Origin: a virus
Lineage: Duplodnaviria; Caudoviricetes
Strand: one strand, 5' to 3'
Virus record (IMG/VR): IMGVR_UViG_3300020045_002007
Location: 1-63,799 of that record
Length of the DNA stretch: 63,799 bases
Shown here: positions 1 through 63,616 of the stretch, piece after piece
Layout: the number at the start of each line of letters is the position of its first letter
Numbering within the stretch: position 1 is the stretch's first letter
Translations under genes and position numbers: made by a program
The notes under the pieces: model-generated
What the model saw: only the letters and a program-made list of their open reading frames with translations
Told to the model about the DNA's origin: nothing
Database searches by the model: none

Positions 1-121
1 TCAACCTATCAGGCTTAGGGATAGAGCATACCATTAATTATAGCGTAAAAATAAATTGCCATGGGGGCAAAATAATTGTTGCCTTTTTCGATTCAGTGAA
101 CTATAATAGGTTCAGTTGCAC
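1..121. repeat. 121-bp direct terminal repeat, left copy (likely circular-assembly overlap)
   Basis: Positions 1-121 are identical to 63679-63799. Confidence 0.95.
79..107 (+). promoter_or_regulatory. sigma70-type early promoter
   Basis: TTGCCT(79-84)-17 bp-TATAAT(102-107), upstream of SD GGAGA and ATG 159. Confidence 0.75.
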
Positions 122-158
122 CAAACCTGATCCGATAACTGATAACCTGGAGATTCAA

Positions 159-1028
159 ATGCCGCTCTTCTCGACTCGTACCGCAGCCCTTCGCAGCCTC
201 AAGGACATCTCGATCGACGCAGTGAAACATGCTAAAGATCTTATCACCGAACGGAACGACGGCAGGTTCTACTTCGATGAAGACCAAGCAGAACAGTTCC
301 TCAACACCCAAGACGACATCACTAACGCACATCTGGAGAATACCATGACCACCGAAATCACCCTCGAAAACTTCAAATCCGCTTCCACCGCCGACCTCGT
401 CGCGTTCTACAACGATCACGCTGAATCGTCTGTCAAGAAGTTCCGTGACCGCGCCACGGCCGAGAAGAAGGTTCAAATGATCCTGGAAACCGTCGTCGCT
501 GAAGAGATCGTCGCCAAGCCCGAACCGATGATCGGTAACATGTCGCTGTCCGACACCGTCGCTTTCGCCCAGGCTATCGCGGTCAAGAAGGCGAAACCGG
601 CCAATGCTGAAAAGCCAGTCAAGGCTCCGAAGTCCGTCATGAGCGAGATGATGCAAGCCTTGATTAACGACCCGAAAATGACTCCTCCGGAAGTGACCGA
701 CGACTTCGCCAGTGTAACCGAAGCGCAACACAAAGAACACCGTGGCGAGAAAGATGCTCCGACAGCCAAGGCTTCCTCCGAAGGTCGTACGGTTAGCGAC
801 ACCCAAGCCGAGACGATGAAGACCACGCTGAAGCTGGACCGTACGATCGTTTATATCGCCTCCGGTGAAACCTGGAAAAACGCATTCCAAATGTGGAAAG
901 CTCACACTGACTGGATGACCTCCGCTCAGCAAGACGGTCTGACTGCCAAACTGTACAAGGCGGCAAAAGAAGGCAAGCAAATCACCGTCGTGATCAATAG
1001 CCGCGCATTCCAGCTCAAGAACGTCTAA
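159..1028 (+). CDS. early hypothetical protein, Ala/Lys/Glu-rich; possible in-frame internal start at 345
   Basis: Strong SD (CTGGAGA) before both ATG 159 and ATG 345; first gene after the promoter. Confidence 0.8.
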   Translation: MPLFSTRTAALRSLKDISIDAVKHAKDLITERNDGRFYFDEDQAEQFLNTQDDITNAHLENTMTTEITLENFKSASTADLVAFYNDHAESSVKKFRDRATAEKKVQMILETVVAEEIVAKPEPMIGNMSLSDTVAFAQAIAVKKAKPANAEKPVKAPKSVMSEMMQALINDPKMTPPEVTDDFASVTEAQHKEHRGEKDAPTAKASSEGRTVSDTQAETMKTTLKLDRTIVYIASGETWKNAFQMWKAHTDWMTSAQQDGLTAKLYKAAKEGKQITVVINSRAFQLKNV

Positions 1029-1035
1029 GAAACTC

Positions 1036-1058
1036 CGGGAGCTTCGGCTCCCGTTTCT
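1036..1058 (+). terminator. intrinsic terminator
   Basis: CGGGAGC-TTCG-GCTCCCG followed by TTTCT, just after the stop at 1028. Confidence 0.75.
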
Positions 1059-1079
1059 AACCGATAACGGAGAACTGAA

Positions 1080-1292
1080 ATGGAACAAAATGGAACTTGC
1101 GATCACTGCGGCGAAGAGATGCCGATCTCTAAGCTCATCAAAAGCGGTAATGATTACTACTGTGCCGATTGCCATGTGGATGTCGTAGAGGAAGATGAAG
1201 GTCCGCAGATCTGTCCGGATTGCGACGGCTCCGGTGAAGGGATGCGCGAGGGAACAACCTGCTGGCGCTGTCATGGAAGGGGAACGATATGA
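1080..1292 (+). CDS. small zinc-finger protein (DnaJ-like CxxCxGxG repeats)
   Basis: CDHC, CADC, CPDCDGSG, CWRCHGRG; SD GGAGA. Confidence 0.75.
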   Translation: MEQNGTCDHCGEEMPISKLIKSGNDYYCADCHVDVVEEDEGPQICPDCDGSGEGMREGTTCWRCHGRGTI

Positions 1293-1778: not shown

Positions 1779-1813
1779 TTTACTTTTCTGCCCCCATGCG
1801 CTATAATGGGGGC
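1779..1813 (+). promoter_or_regulatory. sigma70-type promoter with inverted repeat around the -10 box
   Basis: TTTACT-17 bp-TATAAT(1802-1807); GCCCCCAT/ATGGGGGC inverted repeat. Confidence 0.8.
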
Positions 1814-2395: not shown

Positions 2396-3499
2396 ATGAC
2401 CCGCTCAATTTTCCCCAAATTTTCCCTTGATCGCAAAGTGATCAAATGGGACGACTACCTCGACGCCCTTACACCGTGGGAGAATCACCAAGGTATTTGG
2501 TTCAAGCGTGAAGACTACTTCGCGCCCCTCGGTTACGGCGGTCCGAACGGTTCCAAGTGTCGTCAGCTGATTCACTTGATGATCAATGATTCCGAAGGCA
2601 AGACGCACGTCCTCTCCGGAGCGAGCGTGAAGTCCCCTCAGCTTTCTATGAGCGCGATAATTGGAGCGCACTACGGACTGCCGAGCCGCCTTATCGTGGG
2701 TGCTACGAAGCCCAAGACGATGTTATATCACCCCAACCCTCGCATTGCGGCCGGGTTCGGTGCCAAGTTCGAATTCATCAACGTCGCCTACAACCCCGCT
2801 CTCCAACGCGAGGTGGCCAAACTGACTAAGCCTTCTAGCCTCGTGGTGAAGTACGGTATCACGGTGGATCACCAGGCTTGTGCGATGGAAGACCTGTTCG
2901 CGTTTCACGAGGTTGGCGCCAATCAGGTCAAAAACCTACCGGAAGAGGTCGAGGTGCTGATCGTACCCGCAGGATCTTGCAACTCCCTGGTGAGCGTACT
3001 CGTCGGGCTGTTCGCCGATCACAAGAACGTGAAGCTGCTCTACACGCTCGGTATCGGTCCGAACAAAATGGAATGGGTTCGTGAGCGTTGTACCAAGTTA
3101 GGTATTGATCTTGATCACGCTCCGTTCAAGTGGAAACATCACAGCCTACACGATACGGGGTTCTCCACGTACCAGGACAGCATGCCGGAGAGCTTCGACG
3201 GTATCAACTTCCACCCGACCTACGAAGGTAAGATGGTCCGTTACCTGAAGAGCAAGGGTTGGCTACCAGAAGACGGTACTGTGGGTTTCTGGATCGTAGG
3301 TAGCGAGCCGGACTTGAAAGTGATCGAGCCGTTTTACACGACCGATCCCGAGAGTATCCTGGCTGAAGGCGAGACGGTAGATTTGAAAGCAACGGCAGAA
3401 GCGATGTACGAAGATATGCCGACTCCTAAGCCGTCGTGGGATCAGTTGGGTGCAACGTGTCAATCTGTGTGGCTTGAAAGAGCGAAGGAATCGGTATGA
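2396..3499 (+). CDS. PLP-dependent enzyme (fold type II, ACC deaminase/D-cysteine desulfhydrase-like); predicted DNA-modification decarboxylase
   Basis: LTP...WFKREDY...GGPNGSKCR (PLP lysine), VPAGSCNS phosphate loop, HPTYEGK; next to hypermodification genes. Confidence 0.8.
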   Translation: MTRSIFPKFSLDRKVIKWDDYLDALTPWENHQGIWFKREDYFAPLGYGGPNGSKCRQLIHLMINDSEGKTHVLSGASVKSPQLSMSAIIGAHYGLPSRLIVGATKPKTMLYHPNPRIAAGFGAKFEFINVAYNPALQREVAKLTKPSSLVVKYGITVDHQACAMEDLFAFHEVGANQVKNLPEEVEVLIVPAGSCNSLVSVLVGLFADHKNVKLLYTLGIGPNKMEWVRERCTKLGIDLDHAPFKWKHHSLHDTGFSTYQDSMPESFDGINFHPTYEGKMVRYLKSKGWLPEDGTVGFWIVGSEPDLKVIEPFYTTDPESILAEGETVDLKATAEAMYEDMPTPKPSWDQLGATCQSVWLERAKESV

Positions 3500-4059
3500 G
3501 CTACTTGAATCATGACCAAATCGTCCAGGCTTGCGAAGCCGGAGCGATAGACCTCTGGTCCGCGGACTGCGTCAATGCGGCTAGCCTGGACCTTCGCCTA
3601 GGGGAGACGATTTTCTTGGAAAGAAACGACCCCAACACCTGGGGTAAACCTACGAGGTTGGACTATCGCGCCCGTGACAAGATGCTCATGCGTGAATATG
3701 CCTTGGGAAATCAGGGTATCCTGATCCTACCTGGAGAGTTCTTCCTCGCCCACACGGTTGAGCTTTGCAACTTCCCTGATAACCTCGCGGCCTTGTTCCG
3801 TATCAAGTCCAGTATGGGTCGCATGGGGTTGGAGCACATGGACGCTGGGTGGGTCGATCCAGGTTTCCACGGAGCACTGACGCTCGAGTTCAAGAACATG
3901 ACTCAGCATCACGCTATCTTGCTCCGACCGGGTGACAAGATCGGTCAGCTGATCTTCTTTCGAGGCGACCAAGTCGCTGAAGACCAGAGTTATCGGGCCA
4001 AGGGTAATTACAACGGCCAGTCTGGCATCATGCAAGCGGGTTACAAGGGAGACAAGTGA
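3496..4059 (+). CDS. dcd: dCTP deaminase
   Basis: ASLDLRLG, KSSMGRMGL, AGWVDPGFHGALTLE, IGQLIF motifs. Confidence 0.9.
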   Translation: MSYLNHDQIVQACEAGAIDLWSADCVNAASLDLRLGETIFLERNDPNTWGKPTRLDYRARDKMLMREYALGNQGILILPGEFFLAHTVELCNFPDNLAALFRIKSSMGRMGLEHMDAGWVDPGFHGALTLEFKNMTQHHAILLRPGDKIGQLIFFRGDQVAEDQSYRAKGNYNGQSGIMQAGYKGDK

Positions 4060-5045
4060 TGGATTACCGACTGAAAGAGAATCGCCTGGGGTATTTCACC
4101 AAGCTCTACGCGATGAACTTGAAACACGGTATCATGCCGGGTTTGGTTTACCTCTATATGCCCGAGCTGGCCAAGAAGTACTCTTGGGACATGGAACAGA
4201 AACTCTGGTTCGCGTTCCTGAACGGTAACACGCAGAACCCGATCACGAGTATGCGTATCTTCCGTCGGTTCCCAGAGCCTCCGAAGAACAAGGCTGAGTT
4301 TCAAGACCTGGACACCTGGTTCAATGAAGAGTGGGAGCGTCTCAGCTTTGACGTCGATCGTCGCTACCAGAAAAAGGACTTCCCGGCCGCAGTGATGTCC
4401 TACTGCCGAGCACTTCACGCGTTTGAAACCCAGGAAAACCTGCTCACCGGAACCCATGAAGAACTGTGGGAGCGGGTTACGACGAGTTTCAAGAGCTTCG
4501 GCAGACTAGCTACGTTCTCCTACCTGGAATACGTCAAGATTATGGGAGCGGGAGCTGCGTGTACGGACCTATTGTTCACTGACCGAAGCGGTAGCAAGTC
4601 CCACCGTAACGGTATGTTGTTCCTGTTAGGTCTTGATCACCTCGTAGATGACAAGCGAGCCGACAACAACTTCGAAGGAACCTATGAAGACTTCCCCAGG
4701 ATGTGCAAATGGCTTGACGCCAAGGCCGAAAAGTATCTCGCCGAATGCGGAATCCAACATCCCGACGTTGGTAACTTCACCCTGGAAAGTCAGTGCTGCC
4801 AGTTCAAGAACGGGTTCTTCCGACGGCGTTTTCCTGGTATCTATGCGGACATGGCTTGGGATCGGATTAAATGGTATCAAGATCGAGACATGGATGACGT
4901 AACTCAGGTCTTCCGTCAGATGCGAGAAGATCACCTACCCGAGTGGCTCCGGGAAGAGTGCGAGTCGCCGGTAGTAGATCGCAAAATCAAAGCCTCACGA
5001 TTCATGGAAACGGGTGTTCCATTCCGTGCTGAACATTTCCTTTAG
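4056..5045 (+). CDS. amino acid:DNA transferase (aGPT-Pplase2-type, HhH-glycosylase-derived fold)
   Basis: DYRL.ENR, EQKLWFAFLNG, FDVDRRYQK, FGRLATFSYLEY, SKSHRNG, FTLESQCCQFK motifs; cluster context. Confidence 0.75.
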   Translation: MMDYRLKENRLGYFTKLYAMNLKHGIMPGLVYLYMPELAKKYSWDMEQKLWFAFLNGNTQNPITSMRIFRRFPEPPKNKAEFQDLDTWFNEEWERLSFDVDRRYQKKDFPAAVMSYCRALHAFETQENLLTGTHEELWERVTTSFKSFGRLATFSYLEYVKIMGAGAACTDLLFTDRSGSKSHRNGMLFLLGLDHLVDDKRADNNFEGTYEDFPRMCKWLDAKAEKYLAECGIQHPDVGNFTLESQCCQFKNGFFRRRFPGIYADMAWDRIKWYQDRDMDDVTQVFRQMREDHLPEWLREECESPVVDRKIKASRFMETGVPFRAEHFL

Positions 5046-5054
5046 GAGTATCAA

Positions 5055-5633
5055 ATGAGCAAAAAGATCGTATCGCTTCGTGGCACTTCCGGTTCCGGCA
5101 AGAGCACGGTAGCCTTCAAGATGTTTGAAAAATACCCTCGCCAGGAAATCGTCGGCGCGGACGGCAAGATTCAGGGCTACAAGGTCGACGCCTCCCCGGA
5201 AGTCAAAAACCCGATCTACGTCCTGGGTAAGTACACGACCGCGTGTGGTGGATGTGACCAAATCCCGACTCAACAAGAAGCCGCTGACCGCGCCGTACAC
5301 TATCACCAAGATGGTCACGTACTGATGGAAGGTCTTCTGGCTTCGGCGGCAGGTCCGGCGGGAGCGGTTACGATGACGATCCAGGATACCGGGAAGGCCG
5401 TTTTCGCCATCCTCGACACGCCGGTAGACCTTTGCATTGAGCGCGTCAAAGCACGTCGCCTAGCGCGTGGAGACGAGCGCCCTCTCAATGAGAAAAATAC
5501 CCGAGACAAGTGGCAGCAAACGCGTAGCACCGCGAGCGCATTGTTCAAACTCGGTTACGACGTCCGACCGATTAATCACACACAAGCCTTCGAAGACGTG
5601 ATGGACATTTTCGTGGGAGCTGAGCGTGATTAA
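5055..5633 (+). CDS. P-loop nucleotide kinase of the hypermodification cluster
   Basis: Walker A GTSGSGKST; LGKY...GGCD; kinase lid CIERVKARR. Confidence 0.8.
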   Translation: MSKKIVSLRGTSGSGKSTVAFKMFEKYPRQEIVGADGKIQGYKVDASPEVKNPIYVLGKYTTACGGCDQIPTQQEAADRAVHYHQDGHVLMEGLLASAAGPAGAVTMTIQDTGKAVFAILDTPVDLCIERVKARRLARGDERPLNEKNTRDKWQQTRSTASALFKLGYDVRPINHTQAFEDVMDIFVGAERD

Positions 5634-6531
5634 TCCGTTCAAGAGGCCTGAGACGTACGCTCCGTGCGCCGACGACATTCTGTACTGGGTCGCCGAGCGG
5701 GAGCGTATCCGTGAAATCAAACTGCTCAATATCGCTAAGCCTTGGACTGAAGATCCTATTATTCAGAAGTATCGCTTCTGTAACGTCCGCCGCCGTCACG
5801 ACCGGATGAGTCAGTGGATGATCTACAACCTGTTTTCTCATTACGTGATGGACGACAGCAAAGACCTTTGGTTCGTATCCGCCATTGCTCGCTACGTGAA
5901 TTGGCCTCCGAGCCTGCTGGCGCTAATGATGAACGGAGCTATTCCGCATAACGCGAAAGACTTTGATCCTTACGTTTTCGTGGCCGTGATGGACGACCTC
6001 AAGAAGGAAGGGATCAAGTGTTGGGGAAGTGCGTATATGCTCTACCCTGGGCGCGAGACCGGCTCTAACAAGGCCGAGACCGTGGCGTTTCGGTTCCTGT
6101 TGCCACTCGTGACCCACGCGGACGATATCCGTAAGGCGGTGGCTAACAATACCGTAGAGGGGGTGGTCGCCGAGCTGTCCAAGTTCTATGGCTGGAATAC
6201 TTTCCTGTCCGGCCAAGTGGCTGCTGATCTGACCTACTTCGCAGATGAATTAGGGCTGGCGAAAGACCTTTATAATTGGGCACCTATTGGTCCTGGGTCC
6301 CAGAGAGGATTGAATCGTCTGTTCGGGCACTCTATCGGACATCACTGGCATCAGGATCAATTCAATGAAGCGTTGATGATTATTTGGCAAGACATCGCTG
6401 AACAGCTAGACCTGGAGGATATCACCCTACATGACGTACAAAACGTGATGTGCGAAATGGACAAGTACTGGAGAGTGCTCGCCGGTGAAGGTGCTCCCCG
6501 TTCGATTTACGTGCCGGAAACGGCTTATTAA
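5626..6531 (+). CDS. 5-hmdU DNA kinase, helical (aGPT-Pplase1-type) protein
   Basis: ERERIR...PWTEDPIIQKYRFCNVRRRHDRMS, GQVAADL, GPGSQRGLNR, QNVMCEMDKY. Confidence 0.8.
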   Translation: MINPFKRPETYAPCADDILYWVAERERIREIKLLNIAKPWTEDPIIQKYRFCNVRRRHDRMSQWMIYNLFSHYVMDDSKDLWFVSAIARYVNWPPSLLALMMNGAIPHNAKDFDPYVFVAVMDDLKKEGIKCWGSAYMLYPGRETGSNKAETVAFRFLLPLVTHADDIRKAVANNTVEGVVAELSKFYGWNTFLSGQVAADLTYFADELGLAKDLYNWAPIGPGSQRGLNRLFGHSIGHHWHQDQFNEALMIIWQDIAEQLDLEDITLHDVQNVMCEMDKYWRVLAGEGAPRSIYVPETAY

Positions 6532-6533
6532 GC

Positions 6534-6626
6534 TATAATTAGCAAGCGACAAGGGTTTGCAAGCCCTGGGAGGATTCGTCCCCTCCCTGTCGCGACTTCA
6601 AGGACGACACTTTGACGAGGTGCTGA
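6534..6626 (+). promoter_or_regulatory. -10 box plus structured three-way-junction 5' leader
   Basis: TATAAT 6534-6539; stem GCGACA/TGTCGC enclosing two hairpins; loop TCGTC complementary to GACGA at 6603 and 6614 (SD). Confidence 0.6.
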
Positions 6627-7199
6627 ATGAATTACCAACTACTATATGATAACTTGATAGCGAAACGCGGCTCCGCCGGCAAACCTGCTGTTTACTCAGA
6701 ACGTCATCACATTCTTCCTAAGTGTTTAGGAGGAAATGATAAGAAAGTTAATCTGATTTACCTAAGTGCCGAAGCTCATTACGTAGCGCATCAACTATTA
6801 GTAAAGATAAACCCAGGACATCCAGGTTTGATGGAAGCGGTAGTTTGGATGTCTGTTCACCCTAATGGCAAAAGATCTAACAATAAATTGTACGGTTGGA
6901 TAAGAAAAATATATTCTAAGGTAAACAGTGAAAGGGTAAAACTTTGGCATAAAAATAACCCTGATAAGCATCCTATGAAAAATACAGAAACTCGTATGAA
7001 GATTTCTGGGGAAAACAACTGGATGGCTTCTGAAGAAGGTAAGCTATTCTTTAGCACCTGCAATCCAATGAAAAATAAAACTATAGCTATGAAAACGTCT
7101 AAGGCTTTGAAAAACAGATGGTCTGATCCCGAATTTAGGACAATGATGAGTGCTTCTATGAAAAAGGGTTGGGCGGCTAAACTAACTAAGGAGAAATAA
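6627..7199 (+). CDS. free-standing HNH homing endonuclease
   Basis: ERHHILPKCLGGND...NLIYLSAEAHYVAHQLL; AT-rich; basic DNA-binding repeats. Confidence 0.9.
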   Translation: MNYQLLYDNLIAKRGSAGKPAVYSERHHILPKCLGGNDKKVNLIYLSAEAHYVAHQLLVKINPGHPGLMEAVVWMSVHPNGKRSNNKLYGWIRKIYSKVNSERVKLWHKNNPDKHPMKNTETRMKISGENNWMASEEGKLFFSTCNPMKNKTIAMKTSKALKNRWSDPEFRTMMSASMKKGWAAKLTKEK

Positions 7200-8186
7200 A
7201 TGGAGCTAACGGTTCGCAACGCTAACGACCTCTTCAGCGAAGGGCTTTGGAAGCTGAAGACGTGTGGTGTAAAATCCGATTCTAGGAACGGTGCAGTCAT
7301 TCGCATCGAAGAGCCTGTTATCATTACTGTAGAAAGACCGCAAGAGCGTGTGCTGTTCTTCGGAGAACGCGATCCTGCCCACATTTTTCACTTAATGGAA
7401 TGTCTGTGGATTTTAGCAGGTAGACAAGATGTTGGGTTCTTAAAGAACTTCAATGGAAATATCGGACAGTTTTCCGACGATGGAATCGTATTTAATGCGA
7501 GCTACGGCTATAGAATGCGACATCACTTTGGTCGGGATCAGCTGGTGGATGTTATTCATACTTTGAAAGCTGATCCTAACAGTCGTCAGGCTGTGATTCA
7601 GCTTTGGGACTCTGAGGATTTGATGAAAGAAACCAAGGACAAGTGCTGTAACACCCAATTGGTTTTCGATATCATTAGTGGAAGAGTGAATCTCACTGTT
7701 TTTAATCGGAGCAATGATTTCTGGTGGGGTAACGCGGGAAGCAATATCGTGCACTTTAGTTTCCTACTTGAATTTGTAGCTTGTGCGATAGGCAAACCGA
7801 TTGGCAAGATGCGTACCTTAATCAACAATCTCCACATTTACGACAAGTCAGTATACGACGCCGCGAAGCACCTTGATATGCCGCCCGAAGCGTACGACTA
7901 TGACGCCTATCAACATAACGTGACCTCTACGCCTATTATCAAACCGGGGGATAACTGGCAAGAATGGCTGAGGGATGCGGAGCGGTTTTGCGATGATCCG
8001 TTTGAATATCCCTATGGATCACACTCATTCTTCAAGAACGTCGCCTACCCGATGGCGATGGTCTCTAAGACTCGTAAAGAGAAGTCTGGAACCGGCGAGC
8101 ACTGGGCGATTCATATTCACGCGACCGACTGGCGTATTGCTACGCTTGATTGGATTGAGCGTCGTGAATCAGCAAAACGCAAATAG
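7200..8186 (+). CDS. thymidylate-synthase-family dUMP hydroxymethylase
   Basis: SRNG, SRQAVIQLWD, KDKCCN (catalytic Cys), NRSND, and Asn in GNAGSN at the dUMP-specifying position; NLHIY. Confidence 0.8.
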   Translation: MELTVRNANDLFSEGLWKLKTCGVKSDSRNGAVIRIEEPVIITVERPQERVLFFGERDPAHIFHLMECLWILAGRQDVGFLKNFNGNIGQFSDDGIVFNASYGYRMRHHFGRDQLVDVIHTLKADPNSRQAVIQLWDSEDLMKETKDKCCNTQLVFDIISGRVNLTVFNRSNDFWWGNAGSNIVHFSFLLEFVACAIGKPIGKMRTLINNLHIYDKSVYDAAKHLDMPPEAYDYDAYQHNVTSTPIIKPGDNWQEWLRDAERFCDDPFEYPYGSHSFFKNVAYPMAMVSKTRKEKSGTGEHWAIHIHATDWRIATLDWIERRESAKRK

Positions 8187-8187
8187 C

Positions 8188-8222
8188 TTTACTTCTGGAA
8201 AGCCCTCAGGTATAATGGGGGC
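8188..8222 (+). promoter_or_regulatory. sigma70-type promoter
   Basis: TTTACT-17 bp-TATAAT(8211-8216) followed by GGGGGC. Confidence 0.8.
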
Positions 8223-8250
8223 TGTTCTAACAAATAACAGGAGTACCGAA

Positions 8251-8469
8251 ATGGAAACACCCCCCAACACCCATGAAGTTTATATCCGTCGTGGGGTTTT
8301 GATCAATGATGATCCTCAGCGCCGGTGCTACAACGGAGCTTATGCGAAAAGTCACATTGAATGGAGCGAGTGGGAACACTGGATGGATTACCCGAGTGAA
8401 GAACACGCCCAGCGAGCCGCAAGATTGTTTGCTCGCGATACTCAACAACTGAAAGTGGTGCCCAAATGA
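8251..8469 (+). CDS. hypothetical protein
   Basis: SD AGGAG before ATG 8251; NDDPQRRCYNG...WSEW. Confidence 0.75.
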   Translation: METPPNTHEVYIRRGVLINDDPQRRCYNGAYAKSHIEWSEWEHWMDYPSEEHAQRAARLFARDTQQLKVVPK

Positions 8470-8966
8470 AAAACCGTCTCAACTTCATCATTTCCGGTAG
8501 CGAGACCGTTCGCTATCACACGGTTCGTACGCTAACTTCCGAAACCGTAGGTCATCATTCCCACATGGTCGCGATGCTCTGTATCATCCTACATCCGACA
8601 GAAAACCCCAGTACGGCTTTACTTTGGGGTGCTTTGACTCATGACCTCGCCGAACACCAAACGGGTGACATCCCCTCGCCAGCAAAACGCGAGTACGGGA
8701 TCGGCGAGCAAGTGTCCGAACTTGAGGAAAGACTACTGACAAGTGCGCTTTTGGACATGAAACTGTCTAATATGGACGCTCGTATCCTGAAGCTAGCTGA
8801 TTTGGCTCAGGGTGCGCTGTTCTGCGTACGCGAACTTCAGCTAGGTAACACCTTGATGAAAATCGTGTACGAGCGTTACAAGTCATACGCCGAGGGTATG
8901 ATCCTAGTCGGTCGTGAGCGGGAAGTGTTCGATGTAATTCAACAGATGAGAGAGGAAATCAAATGA
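8466..8966 (+). CDS. HD-domain deoxynucleotide hydrolase (YfbR-like)
   Basis: RYH, ETVGHHS, ALTHDLAE..TGDIPSPAK, LKLAD. Confidence 0.85.
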   Translation: MKNRLNFIISGSETVRYHTVRTLTSETVGHHSHMVAMLCIILHPTENPSTALLWGALTHDLAEHQTGDIPSPAKREYGIGEQVSELEERLLTSALLDMKLSNMDARILKLADLAQGALFCVRELQLGNTLMKIVYERYKSYAEGMILVGREREVFDVIQQMREEIK

Positions 8967-9409
8967 CACACGCAGATGACAAGCAAGTCGGTGGCGAGCA
9001 TTACAAGAAACATGGTGAGCGTCTTCAACACTGGAATGTCGTGGCTGAAATGGGCTGGGACTATTTCATCGGCAACGCGACCAAGTACCTCTGGCGTCTG
9101 GGCGAAAAGGGTGGTCCGGACAAAGCGATTGAAGACGTCAGCAAGGCGATTCACTACCTGGAAAAGAAGCGTGAATTGATGATGGTGGAAAAGGCTAACA
9201 TGTGTAAAGATAACGTTCAGTGGGTTGATCCTCGGCTTCATCTCCACCCTTATGCGACACCCCCGCAGGGTACTGCCTCTATCAAAAACGTGATTAGAGA
9301 GCAAGAAGGTCGCGTATACGATCCGGCGATCCCCAGTACGTGGAATCTAAAAGTCAGCGATGTTACCGGACCAGGACCGGGACCAGGCTACGTCAATCAG
9401 GATCGGTGA
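8963..9409 (+). CDS. DUF3310 protein (T7 gp1.7-like, putative nucleotide kinase)
   Basis: QVGGEHY...FIGNATKYLWRLGEKG...EDVSKAIHYLE. Confidence 0.8.
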   Translation: MTHADDKQVGGEHYKKHGERLQHWNVVAEMGWDYFIGNATKYLWRLGEKGGPDKAIEDVSKAIHYLEKKRELMMVEKANMCKDNVQWVDPRLHLHPYATPPQGTASIKNVIREQEGRVYDPAIPSTWNLKVSDVTGPGPGPGYVNQDR

Positions 9410-9481
9410 TATCATGGAATGGACTCAGTTAGATACAATCATTTGCATGCTAGCATTTATCATCGGCTTTCTAGTGGTGAA

Positions 9482-11401
9482 ATGATGGCTAAGACTATCG
9501 TATGGGACGTAGAAATATTCAACAACGTGTTCCTCTTTTGCGGACGCGTGTTGGAGAATCGTAACGTCATCGCTATTTGGCACGATGAGCCGGACGCCCT
9601 GGCGAAGATACGCTCGGTGTTCGAGTCAGGATGTACGCTAGTGTCCTTCAACGGGATCAAGTTCGATACTCCCGTCACTTCAGCCTTGATAGCGGGTAAA
9701 GACATACCTACGGTCAAAATGATAGCTAACTCTATCATCGAACACCAGATGCAACCCTGGGAGGCTCAGCGACGCTTCGGCATTCCAGATTTGAAGTTCG
9801 ATCACATAGACTTGATAGAAGTCGCGCCTAGTTTCGTAGGTCTAAAAGCCTATGGTGCTCGGATGCACATGCGCTGGCTGAAAGACTTACCGTTCGAACA
9901 TGACGCGGTAATCACTTCCGAACAGCGGCCAGACGTCCAGGAGTATTGTATCAATGACCTAGACACGACTGAAGAGCTGTACAAGCGACTCAAGAAAGAT
10001 ATCGAGCTTCGTATCAAGATGGGTGAAGAGTACGGGATTGACTTCCGTAGTAAGTCCGATACCCAGATGGCCGAAGCGGCTTTCATCAAGCGTCTAAATC
10101 TGTCACGTAACAAGCCAAAAGTCCCTGATTCTATCACGTACGAGTTGCCGAGCTATATCTCTTTTGGAGCGCCTCACTTACAGGAATTGTGCGAGCGTAT
10201 TCAGGCCACCGTCTATCCTATCAACCAGAAGACTGGACACGTAGAACTACCAGAGTTCCTGGGTAAAGAGGTGATAGCGCTCAACTCGGGAACCTATCAG
10301 CTTGGGGTAGGCGGTATTCATTCTACGCACGACAAGAAGGTCTGTTACGTCGCTAGTAAAGATTATATCGTCACCGATATTGACGCCGAATCGTACTACC
10401 CGAATATACTCTTGAACTGCAACCTGATTCCTCGTAACACCGGGAAGCGGTTTATTGACGAGTACCGAGAGGTAGTGAATCGTCGGGTAGCCGCAAAGCG
10501 TTCGGGTGACAAGGCGACGGCAGACACCTTGAAGATTTCAGTCAATGGGACCTTCGGCAAGACGGCGTCACGGTGGTCGCCTTTGTATTCTCCCGACCTA
10601 ATGTTGGCGATTACTCTCACCGGCCAGCTAACCCTGCTAATGCTCATAGAACGGCTCGAAAAAGTGGGTGCAGTGGCGCTCTCGGCCAATACCGACGGTA
10701 TCGCCATGGGTTACCCTGCCGAGCTAAAAGAAACCGTAGAACGCGTCGTCTCGGAGTTTTCGGAGCTGAGTAATTTCACCTTCGAATATACTCCGTATCG
10801 CACCCTGGCGATGAAAGACGTGAATAATTACATCGCGGTCAAGACAGACCGTAAAGTCAAAGCAAAGGGTATTTATGCGCCTCTTGATCTCAAGAAGAAT
10901 CCTACTGCCCCGATATGTGCCCAGGCTGTATGTAATTGGCTTGCTCAGGGGACGCCGTTTATGGAGACTATTGGCGGCGCACCGTTTACTGAATTCATTT
11001 CAGCGCGTTCGGTAACGGGAGGTGCGGTACAAGGTGGTAAAGAAATCTATCATCGCGTACCAATTAACAATAGCGATGAGTACGCTTCGGTGGTGTGTGG
11101 AATAGAGGGTGGCGAGCATCTAGGTAAAGTTGTTAGGTGGTACTATTCAAGTGATGAATTAGTAGAACCGATTCGTTACAAGGCTAATGGTCACAAGGTG
11201 CCGAAGACGGATGGCGCCAGGGCGTGTATGATCATTGAAAATAAAGTTGCCCATCCGTCCGATCTCGCGTATAATTGGTACCTTAAGGAAGCCATATCAA
11301 TAGCTATTAACGTGGGTTGTAAGGATTTCCTAACGGATGAACAGATAGCGCTGGTGACGCCTCCACCGAAAGTCAAGAAACCCAGAAAGGTAAAATCATG
11401 A
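9482..11401 (+). CDS. DNA polymerase, family B-like with 3'-5' exonuclease
   Basis: Exo motifs WDVE, FNGIKFD, YCIND; pol motifs DAESYYPN, KISVNGTFGK, NTDG; start reassigned to 9482 (SD GGTG). Confidence 0.9.
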   Translation: MMAKTIVWDVEIFNNVFLFCGRVLENRNVIAIWHDEPDALAKIRSVFESGCTLVSFNGIKFDTPVTSALIAGKDIPTVKMIANSIIEHQMQPWEAQRRFGIPDLKFDHIDLIEVAPSFVGLKAYGARMHMRWLKDLPFEHDAVITSEQRPDVQEYCINDLDTTEELYKRLKKDIELRIKMGEEYGIDFRSKSDTQMAEAAFIKRLNLSRNKPKVPDSITYELPSYISFGAPHLQELCERIQATVYPINQKTGHVELPEFLGKEVIALNSGTYQLGVGGIHSTHDKKVCYVASKDYIVTDIDAESYYPNILLNCNLIPRNTGKRFIDEYREVVNRRVAAKRSGDKATADTLKISVNGTFGKTASRWSPLYSPDLMLAITLTGQLTLLMLIERLEKVGAVALSANTDGIAMGYPAELKETVERVVSEFSELSNFTFEYTPYRTLAMKDVNNYIAVKTDRKVKAKGIYAPLDLKKNPTAPICAQAVCNWLAQGTPFMETIGGAPFTEFISARSVTGGAVQGGKEIYHRVPINNSDEYASVVCGIEGGEHLGKVVRWYYSSDELVEPIRYKANGHKVPKTDGARACMIIENKVAHPSDLAYNWYLKEAISIAINVGCKDFLTDEQIALVTPPPKVKKPRKVKS

Positions 11402-13709: not shown

Positions 13710-14360
13710 ATGGGGCGAATTATTTCAATCATCTACAAGATGACACATCTGCCGACTGGTAAATTTTACATAGGTAGTTTGAAAGATTCGTCCCGGCTTG
13801 CGAGATATAGCACATCTTCTAAGTATGTTAGAGCTATGATACTGGATAACCATGAAGAGTGGATAAAAGAAATAATAGAAACTTTCGACGATATCCCGTT
13901 TTATGACGTCGTTGTAAAAGAACAGATGTTGATTCAAAGCTCAGTAGAGCGGCTAGGATGGGAAAGAGTTTTCAACAAGTTCTATCACAATGGAGTAGCT
14001 GAGTGTTATTCTCCGGAAACGATAGCTCGGCGATTAGCAGTTATGCGCTCCCCGGAAAAGAGAAAGAAAGCTTCTGAATCATCAGTTATACAGATGTCGA
14101 AACCGGGAGCAAAGAGAGCTGTAACCGAAGGACAGATGGGTGAAAAGAATCACTTTTATGGAAAACATCATAGCGAAGCTCATATTGAAAGACTACGGAC
14201 TAATAATCCTTCTTCTAACCCTGAAGTTGGTGCTAAGATTGCAGCGGCGCAGAGAGGTAGAAAGAAGATGCGAGATTTGGAGGGTAATGATAAACGGGTA
14301 AAAGCGGAGCAAATTGAAGACAGACTGAAAGACGGTTGGACATTAGTCGGCTCAGGTTGA
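13710..14360 (+). CDS. GIY-YIG homing endonuclease with NUMOD3 motif
   Basis: IIYKMTHLPTGKFYIGS; GEKNHFYGKHHSE. Confidence 0.8.
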   Translation: MGRIISIIYKMTHLPTGKFYIGSLKDSSRLARYSTSSKYVRAMILDNHEEWIKEIIETFDDIPFYDVVVKEQMLIQSSVERLGWERVFNKFYHNGVAECYSPETIARRLAVMRSPEKRKKASESSVIQMSKPGAKRAVTEGQMGEKNHFYGKHHSEAHIERLRTNNPSSNPEVGAKIAAAQRGRKKMRDLEGNDKRVKAEQIEDRLKDGWTLVGSG

Positions 14361-39051: not shown

Positions 39052-39456
39052 TTACAGCAGTTGATCAAACGATTCGAAGTTGCTCTCCACCACCAGTTGC
39101 ACGTTCGTATCATCGAACACGGCGAAGATAGCCTTCTCTTTTTGCTCAGCAATAGGAGCCTCGAAACGGAAGCCTCCCCAGCGCGGTAGGATAACCAAGT
39201 CACCCACCTTAGCCCAAGCTCCCTCTTTCCACTCTTCACCCGAAGAACGGTCCCTAAAGGCTATTCCTCCGACTGCGACGACCAGCCCAATCTGGGTGTT
39301 ACCGTTGTTAAAGTCCTTCGTGTCTTCTACGAGGACGATACCACCTTGGGTCTTTTCTTTCAAGGTGCGAAGTTGCACCAGGATTTTCGCTCCAGCCGGT
39401 TTAGCGCCTGGGTCTACCTGGGGGAAGTGGTGCTGGATGTAATCTTTTTTATTCAA
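39052..39456 (-). CDS. groES: GroES-like co-chaperonin
   Basis: PAGAKILVQ...KTQGGIVL...GLVVAVG...KVGDLV. Confidence 0.8.
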   Translation of the reverse strand: MNKKDYIQHHFPQVDPGAKPAGAKILVQLRTLKEKTQGGIVLVEDTKDFNNGNTQIGLVVAVGGIAFRDRSSGEEWKEGAWAKVGDLVILPRWGGFRFEAPIAEQKEKAIFAVFDDTNVQLVVESNFESFDQLL

Positions 39457-52927: not shown

Positions 52928-55102
52928 TCAGTTTCCCGATTGAATTGCACGAATTATAGCGGATAAATCAGCGACCGTTTCAATTTTATTTGGGCGAACG
53001 CTCCCACCGGATGCAAACTCTTGATTGTTCGTCCAGTCAAACGGGGTGTTTTCGTAAGTGTCTAACTCTTCCTTAGTAATCCAGTCTCCGGTCTTAGGAT
53101 GCTTAGCTAACCCTGTATTCTGCAAGTCACCCACGTCAGACCACTTACCTGACTTCACGAAGTCTTGAACCATCGGCAGGTATTCAGGGTTAGGAGCGCG
53201 GTTTTGCTTACCTTTGATTTGGACGATGGAAGGAGACTTACTATTCACTTCAGCTAGGAAGTCCTTAGCGTTCTGTCTTTGGGTATTTCCTGGGTGATTC
53301 GCGGCAACCCATTGCAAATATTCCATAGGATCTTTTTCATCCCCCACCTCGCTATACATCCTCGCTTCCGTGGGTGTATTTATACCCACTAGATCATCAA
53401 GACGATCGATTTGATCCGGCATTGAGATGCCAGAAGGTTTAACTTCCACCGTCACATGAGGTTGTCCCTTCGCATCCCTCAGCGAGTAGATACGCGAGCG
53501 TCCGCTAGCTACATCATCGCAATAGCCTCCCACGCAGTGGCCCATCGTGTCGCCTTCGTATTTGAGGGCGTCTTGGAGGGCTTGATCTCTAGACTTCATC
53601 CGACCCATCGCTTCTTCGGGAGCCATAGACGTTAGGTCTTGAGTTTCATCCGGTGAGCGCAACTCCACCCACTTCATTCCCTGCTCCGGATACTCTTTGT
53701 GCATCACGGTCGCCGCGTTGTTAGCCTTCGCCGCATCCGCTTCAGCCTTCATAGCTGACCGCCAAGCGTTGATAGCCGACACGCGCTCTACTGCCTGAGG
53801 AACCGACACCTTGTCCAACCGGTCGGCGGGGAATTGCAGATGGCGAGGGAGGCCTGATTCAGGATTGATAGAGTTAGAGAGTTCGTCTATGAGGTGATTG
53901 AAGCCGAGGTCGGCATTAAGTGAATCCAGCTCATGAACAATAGCGTTATCGTGGACTCGCTCCATATTCATCAAGCTTGACTTAGGCATAAGCGCGTAAG
54001 GGCTACGAGCGTATTCCATAGTCATGGGTTTTATCCCCGTATCGGTGATATCTTCCCAATCTTGGGCTAGCGGCGACTTACCCATACGCTGACCGACAGC
54101 ACCGTTAGTCAAATCAGCAGCTAAGCCTCTATCAACTGACGCATCTGGAACCCTGCCGGGTGTATAATGCAATACTCCTCGCTCAGCCAACGCTCGGATA
54201 GGATCTTCCGGAGTTGCCATATCATTGCGTACGTAGCGAGTGAGGGCTTTGTCTATCCAGCTGTTGATGGAAGCGGCTCTATCATGTAGAGGTATAACAG
54301 GGTTTCCCATCGGTCCAGCATGTTGTTTCAACCCCTTCAACGCTCCCTCTACCGAGCCTTCCAGCCAGTTACCACCCTTGTTCTTGATCACTCCTCCGAT
54401 CATAGCAAGTGGTGACAGTCCTTTCGCCAACATAGCGAGCTTAGTCGGTATCCCGGAACCTATCAGGTCGTCAGGGCTGATCATAGGAGCTTCAAGTGCA
54501 GGCTCAACTTCGTATTCAGGTTGCCAACGCTCGCCGCCGGACTTACTCATCACGGAGGCTTTACGAGCCGCTTCGGCTTGTCGCTGAGGTTGGGTTTCCA
54601 TGTAGCGAGTGAGTACGCCGGTGCGGGGTGTAGTGTTCACGGTGCCTCCTGAGGCGAAGTTGTCCTTAGCCCATCGCAGAGCTTTCTGATCACGTTCTTT
54701 TTGGGATAGCTGACGTCCGAGTTCTTTGTCGGCATTCGCGGCGAACACTCCAGCGACGTTTTCATCATAGTCGGCTTGAGCGTCCGCTTCCAGATTAGGG
54801 TCGAACGTCGTCATGTAATCAGCGAGTTGATAGGCTCGCGCCATATCGACCGCGTCTTTGAGTGGAACATCGCGAGCGCCGAAGTCATAGCCGCCTCCAT
54901 AGTTCAAGGCTCTATCAATTTCGTTACGATTTACTCTAGGGAGTTGAAGCTGTTGACGGAACCGCTTGAGAGCGCCTTCTGGATACTTTCCATGCGCTCC
55001 ACTTGCATCCCAATGCTTGAATTGAAGTCCCGCTCCACGTAGTAATGTGCCGAACTTATCAAGAAGCGGTAATTCAGCGAGGGGGAGAGGTTTGTCAGAC
55101 AT
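52928..55102 (-). CDS. multidomain (polyvalent-type) protein with PcfJ-like domain and two FASGG motifs
   Basis: EGDTMGHCVGGY...IYSLRD..G.PHVTVEV...QIKGKQN. Confidence 0.65.
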   Translation of the reverse strand: MSDKPLPLAELPLLDKFGTLLRGAGLQFKHWDASGAHGKYPEGALKRFRQQLQLPRVNRNEIDRALNYGGGYDFGARDVPLKDAVDMARAYQLADYMTTFDPNLEADAQADYDENVAGVFAANADKELGRQLSQKERDQKALRWAKDNFASGGTVNTTPRTGVLTRYMETQPQRQAEAARKASVMSKSGGERWQPEYEVEPALEAPMISPDDLIGSGIPTKLAMLAKGLSPLAMIGGVIKNKGGNWLEGSVEGALKGLKQHAGPMGNPVIPLHDRAASINSWIDKALTRYVRNDMATPEDPIRALAERGVLHYTPGRVPDASVDRGLAADLTNGAVGQRMGKSPLAQDWEDITDTGIKPMTMEYARSPYALMPKSSLMNMERVHDNAIVHELDSLNADLGFNHLIDELSNSINPESGLPRHLQFPADRLDKVSVPQAVERVSAINAWRSAMKAEADAAKANNAATVMHKEYPEQGMKWVELRSPDETQDLTSMAPEEAMGRMKSRDQALQDALKYEGDTMGHCVGGYCDDVASGRSRIYSLRDAKGQPHVTVEVKPSGISMPDQIDRLDDLVGINTPTEARMYSEVGDEKDPMEYLQWVAANHPGNTQRQNAKDFLAEVNSKSPSIVQIKGKQNRAPNPEYLPMVQDFVKSGKWSDVGDLQNTGLAKHPKTGDWITKEELDTYENTPFDWTNNQEFASGGSVRPNKIETVADLSAIIRAIQSGN

Positions 55103-62777: not shown

Positions 62778-63484
62778 AATTTTACACCAACACAATCCGT
62801 GGCTTTTTGGTGCTTTACCAAATTACCAGGATTCATCTCCTTACCGCAGGAGCATGTAATCGTTTTGAAGATACCCTTACCCGCTAGGTAATTCTTACTT
62901 ACGTTAGCGCGAGCGCCTAGTTTAGAAGCGGATTTACGAGTTTCTGGATTATGAATACCTGATTTGTTATTACGTTGAGTTTCATTTGTTTGTGCTATTG
63001 TGCCCCCTCTTCCTGGAATAAATCCTTTGGGCTGAACTTCACTCCTGGTCGTTGTTCCGCTTTCTGGATCATACCACCAAGGAAGCTTACCGCCTATCTT
63101 ACCCGCTTCTCCGGCATCCTTGATTATCCGCTCGTTACTTCTACCGAAAATCCCAACCCGTTTCGTTTTAGTTATAAGTCCCATAACCCTGGCCTGTTCG
63201 CTTCCTATGCCGTCTCCCCCAGGAGTAATATTTACTATTCTTTCATTACGAGCGAGGGCTTCCCTTATCAGTAATATCTCTAAGGCTTTAGCTTCTTCGT
63301 TTGTTAGACCGGAGTGCAGGATTTTTACCAAGCATCCATGCTTTTCTTTAACTCGACGATGCCATTCAGATCTAAAGTAATCCAACAAGGTTTTAGCGCG
63401 ATTCCCCGTTCCTTTACCATAATAGAAAGGGCTTCCGTCGTCGGCTCGACAATGAACGTAAACATAAAACCTTTTATCTTCCAT
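62774..63484 (-). CDS. GIY-YIG-family homing endonuclease
   Basis: FYVYVH...PFYYGKG.G.R...EA..LE..LI...VN.T.GG.G; start reassigned to 63484 (SD GGAG). Confidence 0.85.
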   Translation of the reverse strand: MEDKRFYVYVHCRADDGSPFYYGKGTGNRAKTLLDYFRSEWHRRVKEKHGCLVKILHSGLTNEEAKALEILLIREALARNERIVNITPGGDGIGSEQARVMGLITKTKRVGIFGRSNERIIKDAGEAGKIGGKLPWWYDPESGTTTRSEVQPKGFIPGRGGTIAQTNETQRNNKSGIHNPETRKSASKLGARANVSKNYLAGKGIFKTITCSCGKEMNPGNLVKHQKATDCVGVKL

Positions 63485-63616
63485 GCGCGTCTCCAAAAAG
63501 AAGGCTTCACCTGCTCTCTCATCCTTGCGGAAGTTGGAATAACGAGTTGGCACTCGCCAGAGAGCATGTGAAGCCTTGCCAAGTTAATCGGATTCCAAGC
63601 CGATACCCTAATTATA
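63485..63616 (-). promoter_or_regulatory. -10 box plus C4-antisense-like structured leader
   Basis: TATAAT 63611-63616; 19-bp stem (one mismatch) enclosing two hairpins; junction ATTCCAA complementary to upstream TTGGAAT and to SD TTGGAG. Confidence 0.6.

Follow-up and report, generated by a model that had tools for sequence, protein, structure and literature searches.

We analysed the genome of an uncultivated tailed virus (IMG/VR record IMGVR_UViG_3300020045_002007; Caudoviricetes), hereafter the window, by which we mean the whole stretch of 63,799 bases, and in it a gene cluster at positions 2396-9409 that is predicted to hypermodify thymidine. The window is the entire IMG/VR record, which is classed as 100% complete and as having direct terminal repeats; both genome ends have 121 identical bases in common, and no tRNA genes were found in the 63,799-base genome. 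Between about 1 and 19.7 kb, the + strand carries genes for replication and nucleotide metabolism, and the - strand, between 63.5 and 20.2 kb, carries those for the helicase, primase, terminase, portal, capsid and tail. The cluster is a single string of genes, all on the + strand, in which most stop and start codons overlap and the frames are open. An earlier, sequence-only reading of this DNA had named eight genes in the cluster and taken them for a complete pathway leading to a serine-derived base like that of phage ViI. These eight genes and the polymerase gene behind them are listed here, where PLP stands for pyridoxal 5'-phosphate, AADT for amino acid:DNA transferase, 5-hmdU for 5-hydroxymethyl-deoxyuridine and TS for thymidylate synthase.

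2396..3499, + strand: fold-type II PLP enzyme, ViI gp226-like, predicted decarboxylase (phrog_3650, 5e-87)
3496..4059, + strand: dCTP deaminase with trimeric dUTPase fold (PF22769, 1e-33)
4056..5045, + strand: AADT, clade-2 aGPT-Pplase of family PF18724 (ADDT; 63.5 bits, cut-off 26.2)
5055..5633, + strand: P-loop 5-hmdU DNA kinase (PF18748, 26.5 bits, 0.5 under the cut-off of 27)
5626..6531, + strand: aGPT-Pplase1 / HMUDK_hel, PF18723 (3.6e-42, 145.1 bits, cut-off 25)
7200..8186, + strand: TS homologue, predicted dUMP hydroxymethylase with C150 and N182 (PF00303, 3.7e-22)
8466..8966, + strand: HD phosphohydrolase of the YfbR/DatZ type (PF12917, 6.7e-11)
8963..9409, + strand: DUF3310 protein, possible nucleotide kinase (PF11753, 4e-6)
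9419..11401, + strand: DNA polymerase (phrog_1252, 7.4e-167)

Open reading frame (ORF) calls combined with Pfam, PHROGs and NCBIfam searches placed all eight genes on the + strand at the coordinates given by the sequence-only reading, and the polymerase gene lies directly after the cluster, as it had stated. Its list of contiguous genes was right for the named genes, but it had overlooked an HNH homing endonuclease gene (6627-7199) and a 72-aa ORF (8251-8469), both of which are treated below. A megablast search of the 9-kb cluster against the phage collection, from which near-identical records may be missing, gave no DNA-level match. As read from these genes, the thymine-hypermodification set is real and intact, with parts that are known from cultured phages, and we consider it likely that the cluster encodes a working thymidine hypermodification pathway starting from 5-hydroxymethyl-dU.

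In the proposed pathway the dCTP deaminase would supply dUTP or dUMP, and the TS homologue would convert dUMP to 5-hmdUMP rather than to dTMP. Phosphorylation of 5-hmdUMP may fall to the DUF3310 protein and removal of thymidine nucleotides (dTMP or dTTP) to the HD hydrolase, and the adjacent polymerase would incorporate the 5-hmdU nucleotide, thereby producing 5-hmdU DNA. After replication, the P-loop kinase would phosphorylate the 5-hydroxymethyl group in the DNA, C248 of the AADT would attack C6 so that the phosphate is expelled, and a small donor would be added. This donor is most likely an amino acid joined via its side chain, from which the PLP enzyme would remove CO2, leaving a primary amine on the base. 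PLP chemistry requires a free primary amine (the alpha-amine), and no isomerase was found among the 76 ORFs scanned, which together point to a side-chain-linked donor. The sequence-only reading had set out the same logic of 5-hmdU incorporation, phosphorylation in DNA, displacement by a donor and tailoring, and this logic is supported by homology to the M6, PaMx11 and ViI enzymes.

Among the post-replicative enzymes, the kinase has the Walker A motif GTSGSGKST and is 34% identical to PaMx11 gp49 (E 3e-29) and 26% identical to M6 gp54 (E 6e-10) by BLASTP. PHROGs gives the 5-hmdU DNA kinases (phrog_800) the label 'terminase small subunit', which many deposited phage records also bear, those of M6 gp54, PaMx11 gp49 and several ViI-like phages among them; on 5-hmdU kinases it is likely a propagated misannotation. 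The start of the aGPT-Pplase1 gene overlaps the kinase stop by 8 nt, and its product is 28% identical to M6 gp55 (E 6e-33), with its best cultured-phage match in the 'aGPT-Pplase1' of phage Pam3 (34%). M6 gp55 was dispensable in vitro (Lee 2021).

For the AADT, the ATG at 4059 is the probable start codon (its database copy has 328 aa). Its residues E244, C248 and D176 are invariant in all six sequences compared, namely those of the window, ViI gp247, M6 gp51, PaMx11 gp46, Mycobacterium phage JAMaL gp3 and a Vibrio phage homologue. Both M6 gp51 and ViI gp247 require the active-site Cys and a Glu close to it (Lee 2021), and the point mutants described for PaMx11 gp46 include C247, E243 and D175, with Cys247 named as the nucleophile (PMC11472151). 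When an AlphaFold2 (AF2) model built from the natural alignment (pLDDT 92.4) was searched against the PDB, the top three rows were PaMx11 gp46 (8z2m, 8z2n) with a probability of 1.00 and TM-scores of 0.49-0.56 for the query (TMq) and 0.54-0.63 for the target (TMt), and the rows after gp46 had TM values of at most 0.19. BLASTP gave no match of the AADT to M6 gp51 or PaMx11 gp46, and the closest AADTs of cultured phages are uncharacterised mycobacteriophage proteins with 33% identity (JAMaL gp3, 1e-47). Pplase2 proteins number thousands in many uncharacterised clusters (Li 2026, PMC13458397), and identity between the branch of the window AADT and the branch whose donor pocket is treated in that paper is about 13-15%.

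We placed the AADT in an unrooted maximum-likelihood tree of 40 rows, consisting of the window, six references and 33 of 82 related loci (described below) that were picked by hand for spread. PhiW-14 gp109, M6 gp51 and PaMx11 gp46 are split from all other rows with a support of 100/99, and ViI gp247 with the Vibrio homologue, JAMaL gp3 and the window AADT fall on the same side of this split. Such a phylogeny had been proposed by the sequence-only reading, and it places the window AADT on the ViI gp247 side, with the transferases that use glycine and putrescine on the other.

The PLP enzyme is 35% identical to ViI gp226 in a BLASTP alignment covering residues 3-329 of 367 (E 1e-65), and BLASTP found no match between it and M6 gp52. 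Its predicted Schiff-base lysine, K54, aligns with ViI K92 and M6 K36, which are the proposed internal-aldimine lysines (Lee 2021), and this lysine plus 29 further columns are invariant across the window enzyme, gp226, gp52 and two relatives. The Pfam PALP test missed the enzyme (15.9 bits, cut-off 35); of the assayed enzymes, ViI gp226 also misses (30.7) and M6 gp52 passes (39.5). The AF2 model of the enzyme (natural alignment, pLDDT 88.5) has as its best PDB folds, at E of about 1e-10, D-cysteine desulfhydrase and the 1-aminocyclopropane-1-carboxylate (ACC) deaminase homologue 1j0a, both of fold-type II, and 1j0a is also the structural template of gp226 (Lee 2021). ViI gp226 has been purified and is a PLP-dependent decarboxylase that acts directly on O-seryl-T (O-SerT); M6 gp52 is inactive on N-alpha-glycinyl-T before isomerisation by the radical S-adenosylmethionine (rSAM) enzyme (Lee 2021). 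We predict that the window enzyme is likewise a decarboxylase of an amino acid appended to DNA. Residues of about 305-367 make up a helical C-terminal tail (about 45-60 aa), which the related locus L006 also has and ViI gp226 lacks, and the matches of most other relatives stop near residue 315. Searches of PDB sequences by phmmer gave no useful match for the PLP enzyme, the AADT or the DUF3310 protein.

The cluster has many relatives in metagenomes. The AADT has 933 database relatives at E<=1e-5, of which the best 120 have at least 54% identity and are all metagenomic, a few of them with labels of metagenome-assembled genomes, and a pattern scan of IMG/VR for the AADT clade yielded at least 598 stretches, at least 572 of them confirmed. 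Eighty of the confirmed stretches and five further loci, with L011 dropped as the same stretch as L008, led to a set of 82 loci, which were screened by tblastn (E<=1e-6, query coverage >=40%) within the stretch fetched. The kinase, Pplase1 and TS homologue occur in the window's order in 67 of the 82, and in these the order AADT-kinase-Pplase1-TS is kept at 40-60% protein identity. The cluster is not a chance arrangement: its gene order recurs in the three close relatives whose stretches cover it (L006, L007 and L008) and in these 67 loci. A PLP gene is present in 47 loci, 35 of which have it directly upstream of the AADT. It is missing from the fetched stretch in the other 35 loci, ten of which are covered for 2.5 kb or more to either side (L025, L029, L044, L046, L050, L054, L060, L067, L069 and L075). 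No alternative tailoring gene was recognised in the PLP-less L050 and L060, only DUF932 and a primase, and homologues of the M6 rSAM and PLP enzymes and of the PaMx11 FAD lyase and acetyltransferase were found in none of the 82 loci. In five loci (L026, L080, L082, L084 and L088) a protein like JAMaL gp2 stands in place of the TS homologue, and these five also carry a gp226-like PLP gene beside the same AADT clade. The presence of a Tet_JBP-like protein beside the AADT, replacing the TS homologue, suggests that 5-hmdU is made within DNA by thymine oxidation in JAMaL and in the gp2-like loci. The AADT clade is large, and its cultured members are all at most 33% identical to the window AADT. Overall, metagenome data suggest a widespread lineage that apparently comes in two chemical forms, one having and one lacking a decarboxylation step, and the PLP-less relatives may carry the undecarboxylated adduct.

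The sequence-only reading had drawn its product from the absence of radical-SAM, flavin and acetyltransferase genes, and this absence extends genome-wide, with no such match in any of the 76 ORFs in Pfam at E<=0.01. Its comparison with ViI fits the tailoring pair, which is ViI-like; that the core resembles M6 and PaMx11 and not ViI had escaped it. The serine origin of the base proved to be an extrapolation, with an AADT 29% identical to gp247 and 33% identical to mycobacteriophage proteins, and with two residues able to switch the donor (Li 2026). Several further points weigh against the pathway as proposed or against its serine-derived end. Every step is assigned by homology. Two family scores lie under their curated cut-offs (PALP and HMUDK_HMUD1): in the profile checks suggested by the sequence-only reading, PF18724 and PF18723 scored above cut-off, but PF18748 (26.5 against 27) and PALP (15.9 against 35) fell short, and the identities of the PLP enzyme and the kinase are rescued by direct comparison with the assayed ViI gp226, PaMx11 gp49 and M6 gp54. 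The HD protein is only weakly like the dNMP phosphatase YfbR (7.5e-4) and the dATPase DatZ (1.9e-3) in the PDB, and the DUF3310 protein matches the T7 gene 1.7 nucleotide kinase at 38% over 34 aa in a single comparison (E 9e-4). The proposed clearance of thymidine nucleotides by the HD protein and phosphorylation of 5-hmdUMP by the DUF3310 protein are the weakest links of the pathway. Many ORFs of the genome have no family match at all, which limits claims of absence based on Pfam, so that an unrecognised tailoring enzyme could be encoded among them, and the PLP step is apparently dispensable in the lineage, given the ten well-flanked loci of the 82 that have no PLP gene.

Other points bear on the transferase itself. 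Foldseek E values of the AADT against gp46 are 0.011-0.026, with no row at 1e-3. It is not a close orthologue of ViI gp247, to which it is only 29% identical and which sits on a long tree branch (6.7 changes per column). The window AADT departs from ViI at positions that vary with donor class: directly after the catalytic Cys it has Q where ViI has W and M6 and PaMx11 have K, and the loop conserved across its clade reads GSKSHRNG where ViI and Vibrio have GSESNRNG. Small changes matter in this family: two Pplase2 enzymes that are about 35% identical use putrescine and 1,3-diaminopropane, respectively, a Lys after the Cys plus a Tyr bind the glycine carboxylate in YuA, and a two-residue swap converts a diamine transferase into a glycine transferase, which counts against reading serine from kinship (Li 2026, PMC13458397). 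Within the pathway as proposed, we thus place a serine donor, giving 5-(2-aminoethoxy)methyl-dU as in ViI, somewhat short of an even chance, because of the 29% identity, the differing residues next to the Cys and in the loop, and the donor switching described in Li 2026; another side-chain-linked donor has a sizeable minority chance. The corresponding fuller alternative, in which a donor other than serine (such as threonine, homoserine, cysteine, or side-chain-linked ornithine, lysine or diaminobutyrate) is used by a widespread lineage with two chemical forms and with virions like those of phage HTVC023P, is tentative. If it is true, the gp226-like decarboxylase would yield an undescribed thymidine derivative, or a known polyamine-thymine by a new route.

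The PLP enzyme might instead catalyse beta-elimination or replacement, racemisation or deamination, and the base would then be neither that of ViI nor a simple decarboxylated analogue of it. There is no decarboxylase among the nearest solved folds (D-cysteine desulfhydrase, ACC deaminase, SbnA and serine/threonine dehydratases), the enzyme is only 35% identical to the assayed decarboxylase gp226, and its C-terminal tail, of which about 45 aa are extra in the window protein and L006, is not in ViI. But gp226, with the same fold assignment (1j0a), does decarboxylate O-SerT (Lee 2021), the match to it is nearly as long as the protein (residues 3-329 of 367, E 1e-65), and the lysine and the 29 other columns are invariant from the window to gp226, gp52 and the two relatives. 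We therefore judge a reaction other than decarboxylation to be unlikely.

In another alternative, the post-replicative genes would be inactive or accessory and the virion DNA would carry only 5-hmdU or ordinary thymine. The ten PLP-less, well-flanked relatives, the homing endonuclease inserted inside the cluster and the kinase score just below the Pfam cut-off would all fit this alternative. However, the frames are all open with overlapping ends, the catalytic residues are intact, the endonuclease lies between genes and interrupts none, and conservation of the AADT-kinase-Pplase1-TS order in 67 of the 82 loci at 40-60% identity argues for selection, which makes this explanation quite improbable.

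The pathway as we propose it depends on a phage-made supply of 5-hmdUMP, and M6 and ViI first synthesise DNA with 5-hmdU in place of thymidine (Lee 2021). The best PDB match of the TS homologue is CMP 5-hydroxymethylase (80 bits), while any thymidylate synthase reaches at most 50 bits, and none of eight NCBIfam thymidylate-synthase models passes its cut-off (best 69.7 bits against 327). By BLASTP the protein is 38% identical to PaMx11 gp51 (E 2e-76) and M6 gp58. In a ranking of cultured-phage proteins, whose rows we sampled across its length, M6-like Pseudomonas phages come first (38-39%, about 1e-64 to 1e-69), ahead of a Bacillus phage and, further down, ViI-like phages (34-35%, about 1e-34), and genes annotated td or thyA of T4-like and T5-like phages stand at 1e-6 to 1e-8. 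Residues C150, R170, S171, D173, N182, H212 and Y214 are invariant in six of six phage TS homologues. The dUMP-specifying Asn of the sequence-only reading is confirmed as N182, which in HMMER alignments stands opposite the Asn of thymidylate synthase and the Asp of CMP hydroxymethylase; we take its equivalent to be the uracil-specifying Asn177 of E. coli ThyA. The two Trp of the synthase motif WDEW, which presumably correspond to the Trp80 and Trp83 that contact folate in E. coli ThyA, are opposite G and S in the TS homologue, and loss of the Trp has been linked to the methylene intermediate being trapped or hydrated. From these PDB and NCBIfam scores, the phage ranking and the residues, together with the lack of a Tet/JBP family match among the 76 ORFs scanned with Pfam, the TS homologue is most likely a dUMP hydroxymethylase, of the kind that M6, ViI and SPO1-type phages have, and not a thymidylate synthase. 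We regard it as very unlikely to be either a conventional thymidylate synthase or a dCMP hydroxymethylase, which would leave the kinase and AADT without a phage-made 5-hmdU substrate, for although it matches Pfam Thymidylat_synt and retains the nucleotide-binding and catalytic residues of the synthases, the Asn in place of Asp argues against dCMP, its scores (80 bits to the hydroxymethylase, at most 50 to synthases, failure at eight of eight synthase cut-offs) argue against the synthase, its closest phage relatives are in M6-like and ViI-like phages, M6 and ViI themselves first making 5-hmdU DNA (Lee 2021), and no other 5-hmdU source such as Tet/JBP is seen in the 76 ORFs.

The dCTP deaminase passes the TIGR02274 equivalog cut-off (115.3 against 92.8 bits), has 2qxx as its best PDB match (80 bits), and retains the KSSxGR (KSSMGRMGL) and TLE motifs. 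We take 2qxx to be the bifunctional, dUMP-forming Mycobacterium tuberculosis enzyme; its database label says only dCTP deaminase. The deaminase gene is found in just four of the 82 loci, which are the closest relatives, L006-L009. In another group of thymine-modifying phages all members carry a dCTP deaminase (PMC13697223), so its role in thymine modification has a precedent in that group. The HD protein is homologous to PaMx11 gp52 and M6 gp59 and holds the same position in both phages, and the DUF3310 protein, which matches PHROGs labelled 'nucleotide kinase' (1.7e-14), is homologous to PaMx11 gp53 and M6 gp61, again at the same positions. The polymerase is 37-38% identical to those of Pseudomonas phage Iggy and Achromobacter phage AchV4, and BLASTP gave no match of it to M6 gp62 or PaMx11 gp55.

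Within and before the cluster we found four further features.

6627..7199, + strand: HNH homing endonuclease gene between the Pplase1 and TS genes (phrog_655, 2.7e-43)
8251..8469, + strand: likely 72-aa ORF between the TS homologue and the HD gene, with AGGAG upstream
1779..1807, + strand: promoter-like site (TTTACT, 17 nt, TATAAT), a match to a sigma-70-like consensus only
8188..8216, + strand: second instance of the promoter-like site, immediately behind the stop codon of the TS homologue, a consensus match only

The HNH endonuclease is, from its distribution, a mobile insertion outside the pathway. L006, L007 and L008 lack it at the Pplase1-TS junction, and a 53%-identical endonuclease sits at the same junction in L047. 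In all, three homing-endonuclease-like genes were seen in the genome, at 6627-7199 (phrog_655), 13710-14360 (NUMOD3 motif) and 62774-63553 (phrog_314). A longer frame around the 72-aa ORF, 7975-8469, matched no Pfam family. The two promoter-like sites, the first about 590 nt upstream of the PLP gene, are part of a 54-nt direct repeat (1776-1829 and 8185-8238, 74% identical) that contains the sigma-70-like promoter match with GGGGGCTGTT after it. A 16-nt core of the repeat occurs five times with at most three mismatches, against 0.24 expected by chance. Location of the second copy right behind the TS-homologue stop suggests that the cluster is read as two transcription units. At the start of the genome, long opposite-strand frames overlap at 93-1274 (- strand) and 96-1028 (+ strand), neither matching any family, and the AT skew over the first 2 kb is high (0.19).

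Concerning the virion, the sequence-only reading had assigned a short tail and contrasted it with the characterised carriers known to it, which are myo- or siphoviruses. The short-tail assignment is plausible through an SU10_adaptor match (88.4 bits), a match to the podophage GP4 fibre (gp80) family (8.1e-18) and kinship with HTVC023P, a phage said to 'resemble[s] podoviruses in morphology' (10.1101/2019.12.14.876532), and no sheath or tube families were found among 31 further ORFs scanned against PHROGs. Less firm is the rest of the module: there are a weak tape-measure PHROG match (8e-4) and a 77-aa match to a gene of Caulobacter phage GB2A annotated as tape measure, which speak against a short tail or are equivocal, and many structural ORFs have no family match. 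The 666-aa protein after the adaptor matches by tblastn only 'tail fiber' and hypothetical proteins of Caulobacter RW-type phages, which leaves the morphology undecided, and its ESM Atlas matches are viral clusters without a name, in one of which 23% of the members carry T4_gp9_10_N; the region of the adaptor and this protein gave no DNA-level match by blastn against the phage collection. A second tail protein, of 419 aa, also resembles myophage structural proteins, matching 'virion structural proteins' of cyanomyophages, which likewise does not decide the tail type. Overall, a short, podovirus-type tail is likely, with less assurance than we attach to the pathway itself. Two other genes of the virion region are a 724-aa protein with a PcfJ-like domain between terminase and portal (52928-55102, - strand) and a GroES/Cpn10-like protein in the head module (39052-39456, - strand), as in HTVC023P. 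Table 1 of Lee 2018 lists carriers of thymine hypermodification only among Myoviridae and Siphoviridae, and a limited literature search found no description of a podovirus carrier. The module is thus already known from sipho- and myoviruses, since an M6-type version is present in the cyanobacterial myophage Pam3.

What is new here, as far as the genes tell, is that a ViI-type tailoring pair is combined with an M6-type core and an inserted dCTP deaminase; the probable virion type of the carrier and the extent of the uncultivated clade are new as well. The mechanism follows the pathways already known for 5-hmdU, kinase and transferase. Nothing known is overturned, and such gene combinations are already frequent in metaviromes, where hundreds of contigs carry combinatorial versions of these clusters (Lee 2021). 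The genome offers a compact, complete and apparently intact example from a metagenome-common lineage without a cultured representative. Thymine hypermodification blocks restriction enzymes and disturbs sequencing, and the enzymes behind it are practically interesting tools for site-directed chemistry on DNA. The cluster is a convenient test case for donor choice in the ViI/JAMaL branch, for the role of Pplase1 and for the bases made by relatives with and without the PLP gene.

Among the characterised systems, ViI has the same classes of post-replicative enzymes (gp67 and gp243 kinases, gp247 serine:DNA transferase and gp226; Lee 2018, Lee 2021) and, like the window, has no isomerase, lyase or acetyltransferase, and the longer architecture of the AADT is common to the window and gp247. 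But the ViI kinase is of the HMUD2 type (gp243 scores 561 bits on PF18747), whereas the window kinase is of the short M6/PaMx11 type and has no PF18747 match, and the pathway genes are scattered in ViI and clustered in the window. ViI is a 157-kb Ackermannviridae myovirus with 5-NeOmdU, in contrast to the 64-kb window with its different virion genes.

The M6 and PaMx11 clusters (Mesyanzhinovviridae) are closer in layout. The M6 order is gp51 AADT, gp52 PLP, gp53 rSAM, gp54 kinase, gp55, gp58 TS, gp59 HD, gp61 and gp62 polymerase, and that of PaMx11 is gp46 AADT, gp47 FAD, gp48 acetyltransferase, gp49 kinase, gp50, gp51 TS, gp52 HD, gp53 and gp55 polymerase. The order kinase-Pplase1-TS-HD-DUF3310 is kept in the window, and these phages supply the best characterised matches (26-38%). 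They differ in tailoring, M6 having rSAM and PLP enzymes and PaMx11 an FAD lyase and acetyltransferase, whereas the window has only the gp226-type PLP enzyme, upstream of the AADT; and they have an annotated dCMP deaminase where the window has a dCTP deaminase. Pam3, a Pseudanabaena myophage (L093:33676-44480), carries the M6-type set of PLP, rSAM, Pplase2, kinase, Pplase1, Nmad5, TS, HD and polymerase genes.

The JAMaL cluster (L004:785-3460) consists of ParB, the Tet_JBP-like gp2, AADT gp3 and kinase gp4. Its gp3 is the closest cultured-phage AADT, with the GSKSHRNG loop in common with the window; gp2 matches Tet_JBP weakly (26.1 bits, cut-off 34.9), and 5-hmdU is presumably made in the DNA by this dioxygenase. 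No TS homologue or PLP gene was found in the 11.7 kb fetched from JAMaL. In deposited records gp2 is annotated 'queuine tRNA-ribosyltransferase' and gp4 'terminase small subunit'. The diamine:DNA transferases of PhiW-14 (gp109) and Acinetobacter phage 15599 (Li 2026, PMC13458397) belong to the window's Pfam family and follow its catalytic scheme, but their donors are free diamines with no PLP step, and PhiW-14 lies on the opposite side of the 100/99 split.

For the virion genes, HTVC023P has a portal 33% identical (2e-88) and a capsid 36% identical to the window's, with homologous terminase, adaptor and GroES-like proteins, and the nearest cultured capsid relative is the major capsid protein of Caulobacter GB2A (RW group), at 65.5% identity; no stated morphology was found for this group in the Caulobacter phage literature consulted. 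The virion modules of HTVC023P, Roseobacter CRP-901 and Caulobacter RW/GB2A have adaptor, GroES-like and scaffold-region proteins in common with the window. In the 50.0 of 60.9 kb of HTVC023P and the 51.9 of 62.0 kb of GB2A that were compared, no homologue of the PLP enzyme, AADT, kinase, Pplase1 or TS homologue was found. By gene content the cluster is a mosaic, in which a ViI-type tailoring pair is set in an M6/PaMx11-type core, in a phage with HTVC023P/Caulobacter RW-like virion genes.

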